Below, one piece after another: positions 283 to 46,021 of a stretch of DNA of 64,000 bases. Both the position numbers and the translations under genes were made by a program. Position 1 is the first letter of the stretch. Each line of letters starts with the position of its first letter. The notes under the pieces were generated by a model. That model saw nothing but the letters and a program-made list of their open reading frames with translations, had not been told where the DNA came from and did not search any database. This stretch comes from a virus (Duplodnaviria; Caudoviricetes): IMG/VR virus record IMGVR_UViG_3300021400_000080, positions 1-64,000 of that record. The stretch is one strand, 5' to 3'.

Positions 283-513
283 TCAGTATCTCCCGTACCT
301 TTTCATAATCAGTTTGTTCTGCCTTTTGAGTTCCTTCATCTCGGATTTTTTTATGGCCTTGGAACACATATTGACAACGGGTTTTCCGTTCTCCTGTTCC
401 TTCTTGTCGGAACCCAGGATATGTCCGATGAGGATCAGTTCGGTCGCAACACGGCATATCTCTTCTGCGACCTCTTCAACGGTCTTGGCTCCGTTGGGAT
501 TGTCCTCGGTCAT
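283..513 (-). CDS. Hypothetical protein
   Basis: 76 aa ORF, TGA stop, fits operon packing. Confidence 0.6.
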   Translation of the reverse strand: MTEDNPNGAKTVEEVAEEICRVATELILIGHILGSDKKEQENGKPVVNMCSKAIKKSEMKELKRQNKLIMKRYGRY

Positions 514-1890: not shown

Positions 1891-2142
1891 TTAACAGACC
1901 TCGGAGATGTCCTATCCCCACTCCTTCTTCCAATAGGAATGAGGTCTCTTGTTCCAACAGGATACCGGCATATCCTTTCCGTTATATGGGATAAGCAATA
2001 GGAATCCGGTCGCACCGATCTCCGCAGCGTCCTTCTTCACCTTAGCCAGTATCTTGGACTTGGGTACTCCCTTGTATATCTTCACATCATGATATTCGGT
2101 AATGCCGAACCAATTTACGATCCATTCCCTTCCGTTAGCCAT
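1891..2142 (-). CDS. Hypothetical protein, probable amber read-through (TAG at 1912-1914)
   Basis: ...KKEWG*DISEVC then TAA that abuts the SD of the next gene. Confidence 0.55.
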
Positions 2143-7250: not shown

Positions 7251-7472
7251 TCATTCACTCTCCCCGGTGTAGGTCCACAGACGGATGCCCGGCCCTCCGT
7301 GGGGATCGGCTACGAGCCGCGATGTAACGAGGTTGTAGACCTCCATCCTCCGCAGTATCCCCATCAGGTGCGTGCGTGCCGCAGAGATTCTCGCGTTACC
7401 CACGTCAGGGCAGCATAGCCGGGCGAGGTCCTTGGTCGGGATGTCCGGATTCTCCTTGAGTATCGGGATCAT
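7251..7472 (-). CDS. Winged-helix DNA-binding protein
   Basis: IPTKDLARL...ILRRMEVYNLV...LWTY; similar to 7749-7988 and 20448-20699. Confidence 0.6.
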   Translation of the reverse strand: MIPILKENPDIPTKDLARLCCPDVGNARISAARTHLMGILRRMEVYNLVTSRLVADPHGGPGIRLWTYTGESE

Positions 7473-7652
7473 CTAATCCCTCATCGTCATCGCCATTCGA
7501 TCACTCTCCTTGTTTTCCTTGAATACCAATATATTGTCCGGCGAATCCCCTCCGCATGTGTTCCCGAACCTTTTTCTCACTATCTCGACCTCGTTCTCTC
7601 TCACGATGATGACTATCTTCCTTCCCCTGTTCGCTCTCAACCTGAATCTCAT
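7473..7652 (-). CDS. Hypothetical protein ending in TAG directly followed by the in-frame ATG of the wHTH gene
   Basis: Manual ORF MRFRLRANRGRKIVIIV...MRD*(TAG)MIP. Confidence 0.5.
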   Translation of the reverse strand: MRFRLRANRGRKIVIIVRENEVEIVRKRFGNTCGGDSPDNILVFKENKESDRMAMTMRD

Positions 7653-16470: not shown

Positions 16471-16499
16471 TATAAATACAATTCCATACAATCACATAC
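16471..16499 (-). promoter_or_regulatory. Promoter-like element shared with the ERF gene upstream region
   Basis: GTATGTGATTGTATGGAATTGTATTTATA vs GTATGTGATTGTATGGAAATGTATATAAT at 35725-35753. Confidence 0.6.
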
Positions 16500-16677
16500 A
16501 ATCAATTGCCTTGACTACTACTCCTACCCCGCCGCCGGACCATGTGGTGATGGAGTTGCTTCTGCCGTGGGTGACGGGTGATTTGCTCTTACCGGGGAAC
16601 TCCGTGAAGATGGAATCTCCCTCGTATGCCTACATATATCCCGTAGGGTTATCGGCTCTGATCCTTATGCACTGCAT
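16492..16677 (-). CDS. MTase TRD-like module 12, in-frame TAG at codon 16 (16630-16632)
   Basis: MQCIRIRADNPTGYM*AYEGDSIFTEFPGKSK...SNSITTWSGGGVGVVV; matches the GYxEAxEGDSI...NTLTT...GVV repeat of phage C5 MTases. Confidence 0.75.
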
Positions 16678-16825
16678 CCTCTCTCTCCGTCATAACCATC
16701 ACTGCCTGACCCCCTCCGTTAATCGACGTTATCGTGGGGGATATTCCTCTCGGTGAATAGATCCTCTTCGCCATTATGTAACCCGATGGGATGTCCAATT
16801 CGGCTGCGACGATTATCCGACACAT
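16649..16825 (-). CDS. MTase TRD-like module 11
   Basis: Manual ORF ...KRIYSPRGISPTITSINGGG..., 58 aa. Confidence 0.7.
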   Translation of the reverse strand: MCRIIVAAELDIPSGYIMAKRIYSPRGISPTITSINGGGQAVMVMTEREDAVHKDQSR

Positions 16826-16997
16826 CCCAAACCACTACTCCCAATTCACCGGGTCTTGCCGTTACGGTTCCCGCTACCCCTCCCCCCATAACGGGGGTAT
16901 GACGATCCCCTACATAGGTCAGGAACACACAATCCCAAACATGGGCCGTCTTGAACTTTCTCTCTTGGTTCGCCACTATCCTTACCACGTCGGACAT
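16719..16997 (-). CDS. MTase TRD-like module 10
   Basis: VMGGGVAGTVTARPGELGVVV. Confidence 0.6.
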   Translation of the reverse strand: MSDVVRIVANQERKFKTAHVWDCVFLTYVGDRHTPVMGGGVAGTVTARPGELGVVVWDVSDNRRSRIGHPIGLHNGEEDLFTERNIPHDNVD

Positions 16998-17167
16998 AAT
17001 ACCGTACCTCCTCCGTCCTTACTGCGGATCGTACTGCTCTATCCGTCTGCACTGATTATCGCCTCGCCTTTATAATGCGGGTCTGCTGCGATACGGATGA
17101 TCCCCGATTGGGGGGATATACGACCCAGGTTGCTCACCTTCCAATGATTGCGGGTATCTTCTTCCAT
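16982..17167 (-). CDS. MTase TRD-like module 9, in-frame TAG at codon 43 (17039-17041)
   Basis: ...AIISADG*SSTIRSKDGGG aligns with VYSDEGICPTIPTGGGG. Confidence 0.7.
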
Positions 17168-30067: not shown

Positions 30068-30134
30068 ACACCTTTTCAAACCCTTTACCCCTTCGGGGGT
30101 TTTCCTTTTAATACGGAAACGTGGATTATCATCT

Positions 30135-32345: not shown

Positions 32346-33851
32346 ATGCCCGAAAACGACAACCCGCAGACAGATTACCGCCCTATCGAGGTTCCCACTC
32401 CCGATCCCACACGGTATTCGATTTTCAAGCAGGGTCCGAAGGGCGGTCTGACGTTCTATCCCAGGAACATCATCAAGTACCTCGCGGCGAAATGGATCGT
32501 CTACGACGGTCATACCCCACGCATATTCAACGGGCGGTCATATCAGGTCATCCCCGACAATAAGTTCGTCGCCATGGTCGCGGATTCCGTCGATGCCTAC
32601 ATGACGGACACGCTCGTATCGAAAGGGCAATACCAATCAATCTTCTTCAATGCCGAGGCGATCCTGGACTTCGACAGGGTCCCGTACTTCGAGGACCCCG
32701 AACAGAGGGACGATTACTCCGTGGTCGAGGATCAGCGCATAGCCGGGGGTCTCTTCGCTTTCGAGAACGGCATCCTGAACACCGCCAACGACAAGTTCCT
32801 CCCCTTCACCCATCATCTCATGGTGAGGTCGTGCTACAACTGCCGCTACGACCCCTCCGTGGAGACGTGCCGTGCGGAGAGCATAATCGAGGGGATATTG
32901 CCTGATGCCGACACGAGGAGGTTCTTCTTCGAGATGGTAGGGTCCATCCTCTTCGGGGACATGAACCCGCCCGCCATCTTTGTCATATACGGTCCGGGTG
33001 AGACGGGTAAATCCGCATTGGCGAACATGCTGACCACACTCATGGGCGACGATATGGTATCGAGGGAAACCCTCAAGCAGCTCGGCACGGATAAATACTC
33101 CCCCGCAGAATTGGAGGGCAAACGTCTCAACGTGTCAGGGGAGACGGGTGCTGTGAAGAACAAGTACACCACCCCCGACGGGGAATTGATAAAACAGCTT
33201 TCGGACGGTCAGGAGATCTCGGTCCAGCGCAAATACGGGCATCCCTATAAGATCCGCAACACCGCCAAACTGTTGTTCCTCACCAACACCGTACCGGACT
33301 TCGGTGACACATCCAGCGGTCTCTACCGCCGCCTTTATACCATCCCATGCCGCACGAAACAGGATCCGGCACTCAACATCTACAAACTCATGACAGACCC
33401 CCAATCCCTTTCATGGCTGACTAACCGCGCCCTTGAGGGATACATGAGGGTCAAATCCAGGGGATTCAAGTTCGAGCCGTCCGAAGAGATGCAGAAGGAA
33501 TGGCAGAACATGAGGGTCCAGGACCCCGTGTTCGACTTCCTCTACACGACATTCGATTCCACGGACATCCACGATATATGCGGTCAGATCGTAGCGCACT
33601 CCGAGTACAAGAGGACGAAGTTCATCTACGACAGATACCGCGAGTTCTGTTACGCGAACAACGTGACCCCGTTGGGATCGCGCAAGTTCTACGAGAAGAT
33701 GAGGAACGAGACCGAATTGGACATCGGGAAGAACCCCGTTATGTTCCGTGTGGACGGAGTACCTACGAGTACCCGTGTGTTCCAATGGAAAGAATCGGTC
33801 CTCAAGGCGCATTTACAGTCCAAGACGGGTAAGGACAAGGGGAAGCCATGA
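32346..33851 (+). CDS. D5/P4-like SF3 helicase (D5_N + ATPase; no primase domain evident)
   Basis: AFENGIL (D5_N), Walker A GPGETGKS, GKRLNVSGE, LFLTN motif C. Confidence 0.9.
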   Translation: MPENDNPQTDYRPIEVPTPDPTRYSIFKQGPKGGLTFYPRNIIKYLAAKWIVYDGHTPRIFNGRSYQVIPDNKFVAMVADSVDAYMTDTLVSKGQYQSIFFNAEAILDFDRVPYFEDPEQRDDYSVVEDQRIAGGLFAFENGILNTANDKFLPFTHHLMVRSCYNCRYDPSVETCRAESIIEGILPDADTRRFFFEMVGSILFGDMNPPAIFVIYGPGETGKSALANMLTTLMGDDMVSRETLKQLGTDKYSPAELEGKRLNVSGETGAVKNKYTTPDGELIKQLSDGQEISVQRKYGHPYKIRNTAKLLFLTNTVPDFGDTSSGLYRRLYTIPCRTKQDPALNIYKLMTDPQSLSWLTNRALEGYMRVKSRGFKFEPSEEMQKEWQNMRVQDPVFDFLYTTFDSTDIHDICGQIVAHSEYKRTKFIYDRYREFCYANNVTPLGSRKFYEKMRNETELDIGKNPVMFRVDGVPTSTRVFQWKESVLKAHLQSKTGKDKGKP

Positions 33852-33897
33852 AAAATGCCTTAGAAGGCGATTCCGATAGATTAGGAGGGAGATCACG

Positions 33898-35394
33898 ATG
33901 ACACGCACATACGCACAACCGCTGCACAATCCGGAGAAGTTCACGCTCAAGGAACATCAGACCTTCGCATCAGAGATGATGGAGAACGTGGAATGTCTCG
34001 CCCTTTTCTACGAGGCGGGAACAGGAAAGACCATGTGCGTACTCGATTGGGCCTACCGCGCGGTCGAGAGAGGGGATCTGAACTCCCTCCTGGTGATATG
34101 TCCCGCCAACATCGTGGGGGTATGGACATCAGCGGTCGATAAGATGATCGAGTTCGAGGGATACACCAAGGACGGCATCGCCCGGCTCAAGAGCATCATG
34201 ACCGTCCGTTCGTTCCAAAAGACCTACAAGACGGAGACCCGCGAGGTACAGCACAGGAACGGCAGCAAGGGACAGAAAAAGACCCGCGACATCCGTCCGG
34301 ACATCAACCGCTATTGGGGAGCCATAGTCGTGGACGAGTCGCACAGTATTGGCGCGCACCAATCCGTCCAGACGAAGGCCGCCCTCGCCCTCGCCATGAA
34401 AGCATCCAAACGGTTCATCCTCACAGGCACACCCGTGTCGGGAGGAGGAGGCGCGGGAGATTATAAGAAACTCTACGGACAACTGAAATTCCTGGACAAC
34501 ACGGTATGGGCATCGTGGACGGACTTCTGCAAGAGGTATGTGCTGGCTTTCGACGTGTTCCGCAACCCCGTCCGTTACCGCGAGGCCGAGTTGAAGAAAC
34601 TGATGGAGGACTACGGGATCGTCGCAAGACTGGACATGTGCTACGACATGCCGGATTCGTCCGAGATCGTCATCCCGTGCGAGTTGAAGGAACCCCAGGC
34701 ATACAAGCGTATCCGTGAGGGAGATACCGCCACCTACGGATTCGAGATACGCACGGGAGGGGGTCAGTACATCAAGCTGCTGGAACTCGTGTCCGGATTC
34801 GTCAAGACCGACGATAAGGAGGTATCCCCCGGCAAATTCACCAAGGAAGTGCTGAAATTCAAGTGCGAGAAACAGGATGCCCTCAAGACCATCATCACGG
34901 GAACGGACGATAAGGTCGTGGTATTCTGCAAATTCCGTGAGAGCATAGACGATGCCTACGAGGTATGCTCCAAGATGGGCGAGACGGTCGTGTTCGACGG
35001 TCGGTCCAACAAGGACACATGGCGCGACTTCCAGTACGGGGATGCCCGCTATCTGATCTGCCAGTACCAGTCGGGAGGGGTCGGACTCGATCTCTACGCG
35101 AGTCACACGATGGTATTCTACGAACCGGAATGGTCCTCCCTGCTGCTGGAACAGGCGAAGGCGCGTATCCGGAGGAAAGGTCAGACCAAACGCTGCATCT
35201 ACTACTGGCTGTCCACGAAGGGGACCATCGAGGAAGATGCGATCCAGTCCGTGAGGAACGGAGTCACCGTCACCACCGAACTCCTTGAGATGTGGGCGAA
35301 ACGCGAGATGAAGAACACGGTCAGCAACGACGATGAAGATGAGGACAACCCCGACACCGACAACCCGGATGAGACGGGAGAATCCGAGATATGA
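33898..35394 (+). CDS. SNF2-like SF2 helicase
   Basis: EAGTGKT, VVDESH, LTGTP, GGVGLDL, EQAKARIRRKGQ. Confidence 0.9.
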   Translation: MTRTYAQPLHNPEKFTLKEHQTFASEMMENVECLALFYEAGTGKTMCVLDWAYRAVERGDLNSLLVICPANIVGVWTSAVDKMIEFEGYTKDGIARLKSIMTVRSFQKTYKTETREVQHRNGSKGQKKTRDIRPDINRYWGAIVVDESHSIGAHQSVQTKAALALAMKASKRFILTGTPVSGGGGAGDYKKLYGQLKFLDNTVWASWTDFCKRYVLAFDVFRNPVRYREAELKKLMEDYGIVARLDMCYDMPDSSEIVIPCELKEPQAYKRIREGDTATYGFEIRTGGGQYIKLLELVSGFVKTDDKEVSPGKFTKEVLKFKCEKQDALKTIITGTDDKVVVFCKFRESIDDAYEVCSKMGETVVFDGRSNKDTWRDFQYGDARYLICQYQSGGVGLDLYASHTMVFYEPEWSSLLLEQAKARIRRKGQTKRCIYYWLSTKGTIEEDAIQSVRNGVTVTTELLEMWAKREMKNTVSNDDEDEDNPDTDNPDETGESEI

Positions 35395-35720
35395 CATGGA
35401 GAGAACGCAAGGCAAGGCGCACGATATGGAGATACTGGAACCGCAGGATGTCCCTCATCGGGCGCAGATTGAGGGAGACCACGACATCCGACGAGGATCT
35501 TGTGGGGTAGTGGGATGCGTGTTCCTCCGAGAGCAAGGACAGATTCGTGAAGGACATCAGGTCGCAGTTGGAGAACCAGCACACGGAATACGGGGAGGAC
35601 TACCGCACGTTCGCCATCCTGGACGAGTCGTGCGCGGTCCTGTTGGGTATCGAGTACACCATAGCCATGGCGAGGGTGAGGATAGCCAAGAAGAGGGCAT
35701 CCCGTGTATTCCTCAATTGA
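35391..35720 (+). CDS. Hypothetical protein with in-frame TAG at codon 40 (35508-35510)
   Basis: ATGA overlap with the SNF2 stop; MTWRERK...DLVG*WDACSSESKDRFV...VFLN-TGA; coding-type codon usage on both sides of the TAG. Confidence 0.7.
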
Positions 35721-35724
35721 CCGA

Positions 35725-35753
35725 GTATGTGATTGTATGGAAATGTATATAAT
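35725..35753 (+). promoter_or_regulatory. Promoter-like element shared with the MTase C-subunit gene
   Basis: 18-bp identity plus TATA-like tail. Confidence 0.6.
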
Positions 35754-35793
35754 CGTACGAGATAATCGAGGAATACCGAAAGGTGAAATGCGA

Positions 35794-36531
35794 ATGACAG
35801 ACGAGAATAAAGCGATTCTGGATAAGGTCGCGCAACTGTCCGAGAGGATAGCCGCGTGCGACTGGACCCCGGACGGAGAGTACCCCGTGAAGGGCAAACC
35901 CCTCCGTTATGTCACCGGGAAGAAGATCAAGCGCACCCTCCGTCCTATCCTCAACGAGATGGGCATCGTGTTCCGCTACGACATGGCAGACGTTCAGTCG
36001 CTACCGGCATGCGGGGTCAAGGAGAACCACGTCCTCATCAGGGGATTCGTCACCCTGACCGACAAGGTAACGGGTCAGTCCATCCAATACTCCGTCATAT
36101 CGGAGGGCGCGGATGCGGGCGATAAGGCGGTCATGTCGGGAGCCGCGTATGCGAAGAGGTTGTTCTGGATAAGCAATTTCGACATCGTGGACGGCATGGA
36201 GAACACCGAGGACGAGGGAGGGGTCTCATCCTCCGATGTCGCGGCCAATCTCATCAGACAGGCGATCCCCGAAACCCCCGCACCGACCCCGACCCCCGTC
36301 CATCCCGTCACCGGATCCGCGGGCGAACCCGTCACATCGCCCGGAGAGGGCAACATCGCCAAGATGCAGGTCCGTGCTATGGACAACGCACTGGCGGCCA
36401 TCAAGAGGGCAGACGACGAGGGACGTATCCTCCACGAATACTACGAGAAGGCACTTGAGATCCGCAAGAAGGCATCCTGCAAGGAGGATGTCGAAGCTCT
36501 GCTCAACATCAAGAGGGAACTCGGACTATGA
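35794..36531 (+). CDS. ERF-family single-strand annealing protein
   Basis: LRPILNEMGI...GADAGDKAV..GAAYAKRLF..SNFDI. Confidence 0.75.
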   Translation: MTDENKAILDKVAQLSERIAACDWTPDGEYPVKGKPLRYVTGKKIKRTLRPILNEMGIVFRYDMADVQSLPACGVKENHVLIRGFVTLTDKVTGQSIQYSVISEGADAGDKAVMSGAAYAKRLFWISNFDIVDGMENTEDEGGVSSSDVAANLIRQAIPETPAPTPTPVHPVTGSAGEPVTSPGEGNIAKMQVRAMDNALAAIKRADDEGRILHEYYEKALEIRKKASCKEDVEALLNIKRELGL

Positions 36532-37565
36532 GGAACTATGTGGCTCCCCGCTATCCGTTCACCATCGCGGATAACCGTGTCTACACGGAGGCCGACGAAG
36601 TATACCATGTGACGGGGACATCCATCGGTGCGCTGCTCGGTCAGTCACCGTGGGAATCCCCGTTCACGGCATCCGCGAAACTGCTCGGATTGTGGCTCGA
36701 AGCGGATGTCGGGGACAAGCCGGCAGTGAACACCGGAAAGGTACTCGAAGAGAGGATCATCGACTACGTTGCGGAGAAACACCCGGATGTCGGACAGTTC
36801 TTCCGTGCGGAGGATCTGTTCGCACCCCGCGAGGGGGACCATGAGAAGTGGCCCTCCGATTTCGAGGATGAGGATTTCCACGGCCATGTCGATGGTATAA
36901 TCTCGAAGGACGGAGTGGACTACATCCTTGAGGTCAAGACCGTGAACGAACGCGGCCTTTCCGCATGGAACGGCTCGATCCCCGCCCATTACCTCTGGCA
37001 AGTGTATCTCTACAATCACTTCCTGACCCAACAGGATAAGGCATATTTCGCTATCGGACTCGTGAACAGCGACACCTACGCGAACCCCTATGTGTGGGTC
37101 CCGAACAAGAACAACTGCCTGCTCATCGAGGTCCCGATAGACCGCGAGATGGTAGCCGCCAAGATCGAAGAGGTACGCGCTATCCGTCATAAGATCGTGG
37201 AGGAACGTGCTACGCTCCCCGCTGATTTCAACGATCCGCGCGATAAGGAACTCATGGTACATCTCATGGACATCTCCGGGGACACCGACAGACTGTTGGA
37301 TGCCACCGCACGTTATGAGGAACTCATGAGACAGATCGACGAGGCCGAGTCGAGGATAAAGCCGCTGAAGGACCAAGCCGAGGACTACAAGACACGCATC
37401 AAGGACATGATGGTCGCACATTCGCTGTCCAGGTGCGCCAATCTCAATCTGACTACGCAGACCCGCGAAACGTTCGATTTCGCCAAGGCGCGCGCGGATG
37501 GATTGAACATCGACCCGTACACCAAAACCACAACCACGAAGATATTAAGGAGGTCTAAGATATGA
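36528..37565 (+). CDS. YqaJ/lambda-exonuclease-family nuclease
   Basis: TGTSIGALLG..PWES, GHVDG, LEVKT, YLWQVYLY. Confidence 0.85.
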   Translation: MRNYVAPRYPFTIADNRVYTEADEVYHVTGTSIGALLGQSPWESPFTASAKLLGLWLEADVGDKPAVNTGKVLEERIIDYVAEKHPDVGQFFRAEDLFAPREGDHEKWPSDFEDEDFHGHVDGIISKDGVDYILEVKTVNERGLSAWNGSIPAHYLWQVYLYNHFLTQQDKAYFAIGLVNSDTYANPYVWVPNKNNCLLIEVPIDREMVAAKIEEVRAIRHKIVEERATLPADFNDPRDKELMVHLMDISGDTDRLLDATARYEELMRQIDEAESRIKPLKDQAEDYKTRIKDMMVAHSLSRCANLNLTTQTRETFDFAKARADGLNIDPYTKTTTTKILRRSKI

Positions 37566-38014
37566 TTACACCTACACCCTGGATTCTAAGCAGCATGGTC
37601 GCAAAAGCAACCGTCCCTCTCTGCGAGGGCAACCACACCCTTCAGATCACGGAGGCATCGTTCAAGGACGATGAGAACTACTACTCCCTCACCCTCAAGT
37701 CCCTCGACGAAGAGGACGAGCAGTCCACCCTCCGCTACTACATCATCAAGAAGGACGGGACCAGGAACGAACAGGCCATCGGCACGCTGAACAAACTCGG
37801 ACACTGCATTTTCGGACTTCCGGAGGATCAGGTCGGAATCCCCAACCCGGAGGACATCGTGAACGGCATCGTCAGGGGATTCGTCAAGCACAATGTCTAC
37901 GAGGGCAAGGAGTTCGTGAACATCTACGAGTACACCCCCGTAGACAAAAAGACCCTTGAGATCGCCAAGGAATCCGGCATCACCGTTCTGGACCAGTACG
38001 CAATCGAGGGATGA
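37562..38014 (+). CDS. Putative OB-fold ssDNA-binding protein (DUF669-like)
   Basis: EGNHTLQITEA...VKHNVYEGKEFVNI; located in the recombination module. Confidence 0.55.
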   Translation: MITPTPWILSSMVAKATVPLCEGNHTLQITEASFKDDENYYSLTLKSLDEEDEQSTLRYYIIKKDGTRNEQAIGTLNKLGHCIFGLPEDQVGIPNPEDIVNGIVRGFVKHNVYEGKEFVNIYEYTPVDKKTLEIAKESGITVLDQYAIEG

Positions 38015-38304
38015 GTATGGTATTCGTCCGTACATCCACCATCAAGAACAAGGGGAACGGACGGGTAATCTACATCCCCGCAGAATGGGGATTCAAGGCG
38101 GGGGATTGGGTCACTATCCGCATGGCTAAAACCGGTGCGACGTGGCCCTATTCCCTCACGACCCGTATCAAGCCGCAGAAAACGGGATCGGATTACATCA
38201 ATATCCCCCCCGAATGGCCGTTGTTCATCGGGGATATGGTCGATGTGAAGATCACCTATGCAGACATCCCCAGGACGGAGATGGCGAAGGATGCCAACCC
38301 CTGA
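38011..38304 (+). CDS. Tandem AbrB-like DNA-binding protein
   Basis: IYIPAEWGFKAGDWV and INIPPEWPLFIGDMV repeats. Confidence 0.6.
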   Translation: MSMVFVRTSTIKNKGNGRVIYIPAEWGFKAGDWVTIRMAKTGATWPYSLTTRIKPQKTGSDYINIPPEWPLFIGDMVDVKITYADIPRTEMAKDANP

Positions 38305-38620
38305 ACAGCTCATCAAGAGGGACCTCAAGAGGTTCATCGAGGGCATCGGGGGTTATTGGGTATCCGTCCAAGGGGGACCCGGCTCCAAGCCGGGGGACCC
38401 CGACATCATCGCATGTATCGACGGAAGGTTCATCGGCATCGAGGCCAAGACCGACACGGGAAGATAGTCGGAGATCCAAAAGCACCGCTGCGAACAGATA
38501 ATGTCGGCAGGGGGAGTCTATCTTACTGTGCGGTCGTTGGAGGACCTTAGACAAGGACTCCGCGATGCGGGGATTCCCGGACTCCGAGACGGGCGCGAAA
38601 CCCGTCCTAAAACCCCTTAA
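38291..38620 (+). CDS. VRR-NUC (PD-D/ExK) nuclease/resolvase with in-frame TAG at codon 59 (38465-38467)
   Basis: GDPDIIACIDGRFIGIEAKTDTGR*SEIQKHRCEQIMSAGGVYLTVRSLEDL; the conserved SxxQ...GG...RS.ED half lies after the TAG. Confidence 0.9.
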
Positions 38621-43663: not shown

Positions 43664-44080
43664 ATGGCAGAATATTGGCTCTATTGGAGCAAGTTCGAGG
43701 ACAACAATAAACGTCCCGGACTGCCCGGAGGATTCAGGACCCTAAAGGATGCGCGCGAATGTGCGTATGAGAACGTTGTCACCAACCATCCCATCGAGAT
43801 CGACGGGTCGGGCGAGGTCATCAAGAAGATCAAGGGCATCGTCTACTCCGAGAAGTCGGGTCGTTCGGGACCTGTCCGTCAGCGTGTCCTCAAGGACGGT
43901 TCCGTGTCCAAGACCAAGATTTTCGTCAATCCCGTCAATACCGCAGCCAAACTTAAAGCCAAGACTGCATCCAAGACATCCTCCAAGACCAAGACCGCGC
44001 CCAAGAAGAAACGCAAATACGGGGAGATCCTGGGCGATGCAGCGGTCGAGTTCGGGTCCGGACTCCTTTCACATCTCTGA
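43664..44080 (+). CDS. Small basic protein (paralog family) with Lys-rich tail
   Basis: FRTLKDARECAY; KTASKTSSKTKTAPKKKRK. Confidence 0.7.
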   Translation: MAEYWLYWSKFEDNNKRPGLPGGFRTLKDARECAYENVVTNHPIEIDGSGEVIKKIKGIVYSEKSGRSGPVRQRVLKDGSVSKTKIFVNPVNTAAKLKAKTASKTSSKTKTAPKKKRKYGEILGDAAVEFGSGLLSHL

Positions 44081-45748: not shown

Positions 45749-46021
45749 ATGAAAGTGGATCCCGTAGCGATATTGGCCGTCGCCCTCTTCCTCGCGGGGA
45801 TGGCTGGCATAGCGATAGCGCACGCAGAAACCTACGACAACCCTCAAGACGAACCTAACCCCGTTGAACCGGAGATCGTGTCGCAGACGGAGGGATAGAC
45901 CCTCTACCGCCTTGACCTTCAGGGCGGTCCTCTCTACTACTACGAATGTGACACCGAGGACGGCACGATCACCAAGATAGTGGCGATAAAGACCGTCACG
46001 ATGGATATAGAAGTCGCGTAA
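45749..46021 (+). CDS. Small secreted/TM protein with in-frame TAG at codon 50 (45896-45898)
   Basis: MKVDPVAILAVALFLAG...QTEG*TLYRLDLQGGPLYYYECDTEDG...EVA-TAA; the TAA overlaps the AAACCTCTT end motif. Confidence 0.7.

Follow-up and report, generated by a model that had tools for sequence, protein, structure and literature searches.

A small nuclease gene interrupted by an in-frame TAG codon lies in the window, our name for positions 1-64,000 of a complete, 75,709-bp virus genome in IMG/VR (record IMGVR_UViG_3300021400_000080, labelled G000 here). We consider it probable that this gene is intact and that its TAG is translated by the pyrrolysine (Pyl) tRNA of the host, at a loop position that tolerates different residues. 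Homology, predicted structure, comparison with a related virus and population data establish that the segment following the TAG is real coding sequence. That the residue placed at the TAG is pyrrolysine is plausible but unproven, as it follows from an indirect link between the virus and its host. The gene and its parts are the following:

38291..38620, plus strand: nuclease gene of 109 codons and a TAA, predicted to encode a VRR-NUC/Hjc-type PD-(D/E)xK nuclease; its one TAG needs read-through
38291..38464, plus strand: N-terminal part, with helix 1, strands 1-3 and the catalytic D-P-D and E-x-K; reported by standard gene callers as a 58-aa protein
38465..38467, plus strand: in-frame TAG, codon 59 of 109, in the loop that joins strand 3 (E-x-K) to helix 2
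38468..38617, plus strand: part after the TAG, with helix 2, in which Q and R are invariant, then strand 4, helix 3 and a tail of low confidence

The nuclease reading frame continues past the TAG

A first-pass annotation of the window had proposed that a TAG interrupts this nuclease. Our analysis places the TAG at 38465-38467, with the frame running on to a TAA at 38618-38620, and the peptide strings quoted in that annotation are correct. After the TAG, the frame contains no frameshifts and no extra stops, and the catalytic and structural invariants are all intact. The start was set by homologues and by a natural 109-aa variant (P0045), which begin M-x-TPEQ, and by a GGAG located about 10 nt upstream of the ATG at 38291; this ATG overlaps the TGA of the upstream gene. 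Another in-frame ATG, at 38258, was considered as the start and is improbable, because the homologues and the 109-aa variant start at M-x-TPEQ.

The 50-codon open run after the TAG is unremarkable on its own (P ~0.3, TAA and TGA together accounting for ~2.5% of the codons in non-coding frames). Since codon usage does not discriminate here, the coding status of this segment was tested by homology and by the ratio of non-synonymous to synonymous substitution (dN/dS).

An internal ATG at 38501 leads gene callers to treat the C-terminal part as a small open reading frame (ORF; 38501-38620) of its own, and a 49-aa product of such an ORF, with a different tail, is present in the protein collection (P0032). 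Because of this separate ORF, the nuclease is annotated publicly as two unrelated mini-proteins.

Read-through restores a VRR-NUC/Hjc-type nuclease

Next, we compared the N-terminal part alone with the read-through protein. Against PHROG 93 ('endonuclease'), the score rose from 27.7 bits for the N-terminal part to 52 bits with read-through (E 9e-14, residues 11-103). Against Pfam Hjc (PF01870), the sole Pfam match of the nuclease, it rose from 17.4 to 23.2 bits, with the match spanning profile positions 4-66 of 93, and the cut-off of 21.1 was passed only by the read-through protein. Read-through is therefore required for the domain, as had been proposed. The naming of that domain as VRR-NUC-type is also supported, with a caveat. 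Pfam VRR_NUC (PF08774) gave no match to the read-through nuclease at E<=1, while the nearest solved structures are those of VRR-NUC proteins (4qbo, 4qbn and 4qbl), followed by Hjc and RecU. Among 27 relatives, the VRR_NUC model matches 8 at E<=0.01 (best 8e-4) and the Hjc model matches 6.

We found 28 uninterrupted homologues of 93-146 aa, 26 of which were aligned across the TAG site at 33-65% identity; the segment after the TAG thus aligns with its family. In an alignment of these 26 proteins and the TAG-bearing copy of the related virus G001, described below (27 sequences, P0001 numbering), D47/D49, E62, K64 and Q74 are invariant, so that the PD-(D/E)xK signature is present. Q74 lies after the TAG, where R77, I81 and G86 are also invariant. 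The motif that had been put forward, E-x-K ... G-x-x-S-x-x-Q ... GG ... RS-x-ED, fits the consensus of this subfamily.

The AlphaFold2 model of the read-through protein (mean predicted local distance difference test score, pLDDT, 85) has the order a1-b1-b2-b3-[TAG loop]-a2-b4-a3, with pLDDT 89-96 in the folded part after the TAG. Stopping at the TAG would remove helix 2, strand 4 and helix 3, which is 51 of the 109 residues and agrees with the earlier estimate of about half the domain. The best Foldseek match in the PDB was 4qbn_A, with a template modelling (TM) score of 0.78 on the target and a root-mean-square deviation of 2.1 A over 90 columns, and the next matches were Archaeoglobus Hjc, 4qbl and RecU. 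A family profile searched against the PDB matched 4qbo (E 1.5e-4), 4qbl (0.005) and 4qbn (0.025), and all of these alignments cross the TAG.

These comparisons support a VRR-NUC/Hjc-type nuclease as predicted from sequence and model, and not a certified member of PF08774. We use this double label because fold and profile favour stand-alone VRR-NUC proteins while only Pfam Hjc passes its threshold. Like stand-alone VRR-NUC proteins (4QBN, 4QBO, 4QBL; PF08774), the nuclease falls within ~90-145 residues and has an alpha-beta-beta-beta-alpha-beta core with D ... E-x-K ... Q. It differs from these structures in that identity is ~20%, its activity is a prediction and the Pfam VRR_NUC model falls short of it. 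Bacterial and phage VRR-NUC proteins of the 4QBN/4QBO/4QBL type are reportedly dimeric Holliday-junction resolvases. With archaeal Hjc (PF01870; 2WCW, 1HH1, 1GEF), the nuclease has in common the catalytic motif and the core fold (Foldseek E 7e-4, TM ~0.5), but it is shorter (109 versus ~120-145 aa) and the fold match is weaker than that to VRR-NUC.

The TAG is conserved in a related virus and recurs across metagenomes

A second virus in IMG/VR (G001, 46.3 kb) is collinear with the window virus at 83-91% DNA identity and has a TAG at the same codon of its nuclease gene. In the segments after the TAG, 10 differences between the two are synonymous and 3 are non-synonymous. The ratio of the proportions of non-synonymous and synonymous differences (pN/pS) is 0.10 (binomial P 1.7e-4), and in the other two frames pN is greater than pS. 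Across 48 orthologous genes of the two viruses, pS is 0.298 and pN 0.082; the nuclease, with a pN of 0.021, is among the better conserved.

Truncated forms of the nuclease are found well beyond these two viruses. In one protein cluster, compiled from NCBI, Logan, ENA and JGI, 16 of the 17 members are stumps of 58 or 59 aa, occurring on more than 100 contigs (59, 23, 5, 4, 4 ... contigs). The remaining member is the 109-aa variant P0045, which has the same ends as the nuclease and a leucine at position 59. In addition, the stump of a separate, 83%-identical lineage (P0031) stops at the same residue. The stop was read as TAG in the DNA of two genomes (G000 and G001), and the other 100+ contigs are known from the ends of their stump proteins. 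When IMG/VR and the JGI metagenomes were scanned by DNA pattern for more TAG-bearing copies of the nuclease, the only hits were G001 and the contig it derives from. Distant relatives (L044-L050 and others), scanned for in-frame TAGs in shared genes, gave antisense-frame noise and no genuine case outside the G000/G001 lineage.

Because the stump recurs as 16 variants on more than 100 contigs, and again in the 83%-identical lineage, sequencing error and recent decay are excluded. Pseudogene decay in related viruses had been named beforehand as an observation that would count against read-through; what we found was purifying selection in G001 and the 109-aa variant P0045.

The position of the TAG is variable in the family. 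In 80 viral homologues, its column is occupied by P, L, Q, I, V, A, M, N, E, S or T. Glutamine is the commonest residue among the closest homologues, and codons for Q and L lie one base from TAG.

Other genes of the virus carry in-frame TAGs

We then analyzed stop usage in the complete genome, which has a direct terminal repeat of 107 bp, using a self-trained gene set in which TAG was treated as sense. About 127 genes end in TGA (99) or TAA (28). TAG is the first stop in ~8 genes, at 1914(-), 7475(-), 16632(-), 17041(-), 35508(+), 38465(+), 45896(+) and 73707(-), which is below the background TAG share of stop triplets of 22.6% (P 7e-7); other TAG-ended ORFs are antisense shadows. Reading through these ~8 genes produces no overlap of more than 60 nt with a following gene ('Category 4' is absent). 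In addition to the nuclease, the following belong to this set:

35391..35720, plus strand: second gene whose in-frame TAG (35508-35510) is conserved; its ATG and the stop of the SNF2 gene overlap (ATGA)
45749..46021, plus strand: third gene with a conserved TAG (45896-45898), also a TAG in G001; post-TAG pS 0.22, pN 0.043
7251..7652, minus strand: candidate read-through gene, TAG at 7473-7475; the extension ends exactly at the start of the next gene, and the gene lies outside the part covered by G001
16492..17167, minus strand: two small genes in a methylase-module array, with first-stop TAGs at 16630-16632 and 17039-17041
1891..2142, minus strand: gene with first stop TAG at 1912-1914 and 6 more codons to a TAA; stop and sense are indistinguishable

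The TAG at 35508-35510 is kept in G001 and in a virus fragment binned with a methanogen genome (G003:C155), and the post-TAG segment has pS 0.24 and pN 0.048; pN/pS against G001 is thus ~0.2 in the genes at 35508 and 45896. No family match was found for the gene at 35391..35720. For the gene with its TAG at 16630-16632, a weak alignment to a paralogue extends across this codon (E 8e-5). In-frame TAG sites also turn over between close relatives, because the 76-aa gene at 283-513 (minus strand) has GAA (Glu) in the window virus where the G001 orthologue has an in-frame TAG, at codon 25.

No PYLIS-like (pyrrolysine insertion sequence) or shared RNA structure was detected downstream of the eight TAGs, with z-scores from -2.7 to +1.8 and no common signal, and no Rfam RNA matched the 64-kb window. 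ARAGORN found no tRNA genes in the complete 75.7-kb genome or in G001. Since the virus has no tRNA of its own, it must rely on decoding by the host.

The nuclease closes a replication-recombination operon

The gene lies at the end of a series of genes with overlapping stops and starts:

32346..38304, plus strand: replication-recombination operon upstream of the nuclease, which closes it

The order in this operon is a primase/D5-type helicase, an SNF2 helicase, the small TAG-containing ORF described above, an Erf-like annealing protein, a YqaJ/RecE-like exonuclease and two genes of unknown function. Phage VRR-NUC genes often adjoin SNF2 helicases, and the nuclease gene is likewise found near one. 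From its family and from its Erf-like, RecE/YqaJ-like and SNF2 neighbours, the nuclease probably serves in Holliday-junction or branch resolution during recombination-dependent replication.

The module is common to the viral contigs L044-L050 and to contigs of three metagenome-assembled genomes (MAGs) of Pyl-encoding methanogens. The closest genome-borne homologue of the nuclease lies on one of the latter, G002:C2 (L151-L155, ~90.7 kb), with the SNF2, annealing-protein, exonuclease and nuclease genes arranged as in the window virus. We considered whether G002:C2 is an integrated provirus with host flanks and rejected this, as it is itself a tailed-virus contig with a large terminase, a BspA-type leucine-rich repeat (LRR) protein and a 3,236-aa ORF.

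Binned virus fragments suggest a pyrrolysine-encoding methanogen as the probable host

The three closest genome-borne homologues of the nuclease, in the same module, are in three MAGs of one GTDB order, which comprises 261 species with genomes of 1-3 Mb. All three MAGs encode a short-form PylS (259-272 bits versus a curated cut-off of 178, in open frames of 293-363 aa) and McrA above its cut-off; MtrH gave no match in any of them. Each also carries mttB or mtmB with exactly one in-frame TAG. In the order as a whole, PylS was found in 63 of 121 genomes sampled. The combination of PylS, McrA, no MtrH and TAG-containing methyltransferases fits the Methanomassiliicoccales (PMC4153887).

In the submitted records, the contigs of these MAGs are named Dialister hominis (L003, CAVICI010000002.1), Methanomicrobiales archaeon (L004, CALAVG010000010.1) and Lachnospiraceae bacterium (L005, CAVIUM010000003.1). 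These names appear wrong, because McrA, PylS, methyltransferases with TAG and no MtrH match are found in all three, within one GTDB order; the genomes look like Methanomassiliicoccales-type methanogens.

MAG G003, which has PylS, McrA and two mtmB genes, each carrying a single TAG, holds three short contigs (C109, C155 and C233; 1.1-1.9 kb) that are 89%, 96% and 97% identical to the virus. One virus piece in G003 ends just downstream of the nuclease gene. The state of this assembly suggests that it was fragmented by strain variation in the virus population. Of 35 long ORFs in a 46-kb sample of G003 (53% G+C), 31 terminate at TGA and 4 at TAA; TAG terminates none of them. The binned fragments and the relatives of the module make a Methanomassiliicoccales-type gut methanogen the most likely host.

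Two short stretches of the window also match genomes of the candidate host order. Positions 43817-43841 have a 25-nt exact match in five genomes (G257, G137, G208, G204 and G233). In the single flank inspected, no tRNA gene lies beside it, and the stretch may represent a conserved coding word. Positions 30075-30106 match over ~30 nt at 97% in two genomes (G202 and G062), with no array of clustered regularly interspaced short palindromic repeats (CRISPR) in the flanks.

Discussion

Our model is that this virus, which has no suppressor tRNA, depends on a TAG-decoding host that probably reads TAG as Pyl and rarely as stop ('Genetic Code 34'). The Pyl-tRNA(CUA) of that host would place pyrrolysine in a surface loop that connects the E-x-K strand to the following helix and tolerates many residues, and the nuclease would then act as the last step of the Erf/exonuclease recombination-replication module of the virus. 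The TAG probably arose by a single-base change, from CAG or TTG, and would persist because it has little or no cost in a Pyl-decoding host. We regard Pyl insertion as the best reading because virus fragments of 89-97% identity were binned in a MAG with PylS, McrA and TAG-containing mtmB. A neutral appearance and persistence of TAG, where TAG is no stop, fits the data, since the column of the TAG is variable, the closest relatives have Q or L there and a Leu variant exists in nature.

Several points weigh against this reading. The link between virus and host consists of the metagenomic binning of short contigs and of relatives of the module; G002:C2 counts as binning evidence only, because it is a tailed-virus contig and not an integration. 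The names given to the three MAGs by their submitters disagree with a Methanomassiliicoccales assignment. A search for CRISPR spacers gave short, 25-32-nt virus matches in genomes of the host order, none of them in a repeat array, and one of them in an LRR-repeat gene. Scoring of the 50 post-TAG codons by codon usage did not tell the frames apart and was uninformative. Finally, a TAG share of ~6% of stops is not unusual for prokaryotic genomes generally.

The TAG could alternatively act as a conditional switch, in that full-length nuclease would require an abundance of charged tRNA-Pyl, for instance during growth on methylamines, and the 58-aa stump would be made otherwise. In Methanosarcina acetivorans, UAG is both a stop and a Pyl codon, and Pyl supply tracks methylamine demand (PMC12626013, PMC13663744). 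The TAG allele is also by far the commonest, on more than 100 contigs versus one with Leu, and a stump of equal length is found in the 83%-identical lineage, which leaves room for selection retaining the TAG. Moreover, the same replication operon contains a second conserved TAG, at 35508. The first-pass annotation had suggested that dependence on Pyl would be a natural switch for productive replication, a proposal that our data do not bear out. The position is variable among homologues and a Leu variant occurs naturally; the TAGs are scattered across unrelated small genes, with some extensions of just 6-9 codons, and the sample of the candidate host has no TAG stops. These observations point to constitutive decoding and neutral drift. 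We estimate that retention of three TAGs between G000 and G001 is expected by chance at a pS of ~0.2-0.3 (~0.5 per site), no conserved RNA structure was found downstream, and constitutive reading of TAG has been reported for Code 34 archaea (bioRxiv 10.1101/2024.09.30.615893). No result marks out the nuclease in particular. We therefore consider a switch unlikely.

Alternatively, the virus might infect a host without Pyl, in which the TAG is a leaky stop misread by a near-cognate tRNA (Gln, Tyr, Lys or Leu), keeping a potentially toxic resolvase at a low dose. Resolvases are needed in small amounts, and homologues often have Q or L, one base from TAG, at this column. One leaky gene, however, would leave the genome-wide avoidance of TAG terminators unexplained. 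At least two other genes, of different kinds, have conserved TAGs with constrained downstream frames, and the relatives and the near-identical fragments are found in bins of Pyl-encoding methanogens, all of which makes this explanation quite improbable. We give still less credence to recoding of TAG to glutamine (code 15, known from gut phages) switched on by a suppressor tRNA. It would agree with Q as the commonest residue at the TAG column among the closest homologues, but neither the complete genome nor G001 encodes a tRNA, ~8 TAGs in 127 genes contrast with the dense use of TAG in recoded phage genes, and the genes and relatives of the virus indicate archaeal methanogen hosts. That the gene is a pseudogene or an assembly error, yielding a stump or nothing, is hardly credible: standard gene calling does give a 58-aa product and a separate ORF from the ATG at 38501 (P0032), but the stop has the same position in independent assemblies on more than 100 contigs, as TAG in the DNA of two genomes, and the frame beyond it has its low pN/pS of 0.10 in the original frame only, unbroken and with its invariants.

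The proposed translation of the TAG by the host Pyl-tRNA has close counterparts in cellular genes. In 'Ca. Methanomethylophilus alvus', TAG makes up 1.6% of the stops and lies inside 16 genes other than those for methyltransferases, among them cas1 (Borrel et al. 2014, PMC4153887). Under 'Genetic Code 34', validated by proteomics, all TAG codons of such archaea are Pyl, and the preprint describing it sets out criteria for internal-TAG genes of 'Category 1' (Kivenson et al., bioRxiv 10.1101/2024.09.30.615893). This category asks for >30% identity across the site and an extension of >15 aa, and the nuclease has 33-65% identity to 26 proteins and a 50-codon extension. Like Category 1 genes, it encodes a conserved protein other than a methyltransferase and has a single internal TAG, before and after which homology is found. 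The virus also resembles Code 34 genomes in that TAG is avoided as terminator, no cis element is needed and homologues elsewhere have ordinary residues at the site. In contrast to the cellular genes, the nuclease gene belongs to a complete virus genome that carries no Pyl machinery; it represents a viral case of what is known from the cellular genes of methanogens.

Thg1 of Methanosarcina acetivorans is an example of Pyl outside the methylamine proteins. Native proteins of this kind have been cited as cases of neutral drift (PMC12626013), and they resemble the nuclease in having Pyl at a non-essential, variable position of an ordinary enzyme. Those cases are cellular, whereas the nuclease is viral and its TAG is the majority allele across many metagenomic assemblies. 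Among viruses, smacoviruses have been assigned to the Methanomassiliicoccales by their avoidance of amber stops (Diez-Villasenor and Rodriguez-Valera 2019, PMC6336856). In both cases, stop usage mirrors the Pyl-decoding host and serves as a clue to it, but smacoviruses show terminator avoidance only, while the window virus also has TAGs inside conserved genes, which need translation. With code 15 gut phages it shares in-frame TAGs that truncate gene calls under the standard code; these phages use TAG densely and typically have suppressor tRNAs, in contrast to the sparse TAGs and absent tRNA of the window virus. The Code 34 preprint does not mention viruses (bioRxiv 10.1101/2024.09.30.615893), and a 2026 screen based on coding density detected no alternative code among 3,708 genomes of archaeal viruses (PMC13465236). 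In the literature searched, a scope that leaves out the methanogen-virus compendium of Medvedeva et al. 2023, we found no description of internal Pyl codons in virus genes.

In practice, the finding matters for calling virus genes and for assigning hosts. Recoding of TAG as sparse as this slips past coding-density screens, and in more than 100 public contigs standard callers systematically leave only a 58-aa stump of a conserved replication-repair enzyme. Internal TAGs, combined with avoidance of TAG as terminator, can serve to recognize viruses whose hosts are Methanomassiliicoccales of the rumen and gut, which are relevant to methane emission.

A bolder, rather unlikely extension is that viruses of 'Code 34' methanogens have adopted the 21-amino-acid code of their hosts and keep Pyl codons in essential replication genes, so that methylamine-linked Pyl supply gates their replication. 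If this were true, multiplication would be locked to hosts with an active Pyl system, and the TAGs in the resolvase and in the other operon gene would form a built-in sensor. The nuclease itself is a small, easily assayed natural protein with which to ask whether Pyl outside the methyltransferases is neutral, functional or regulatory.

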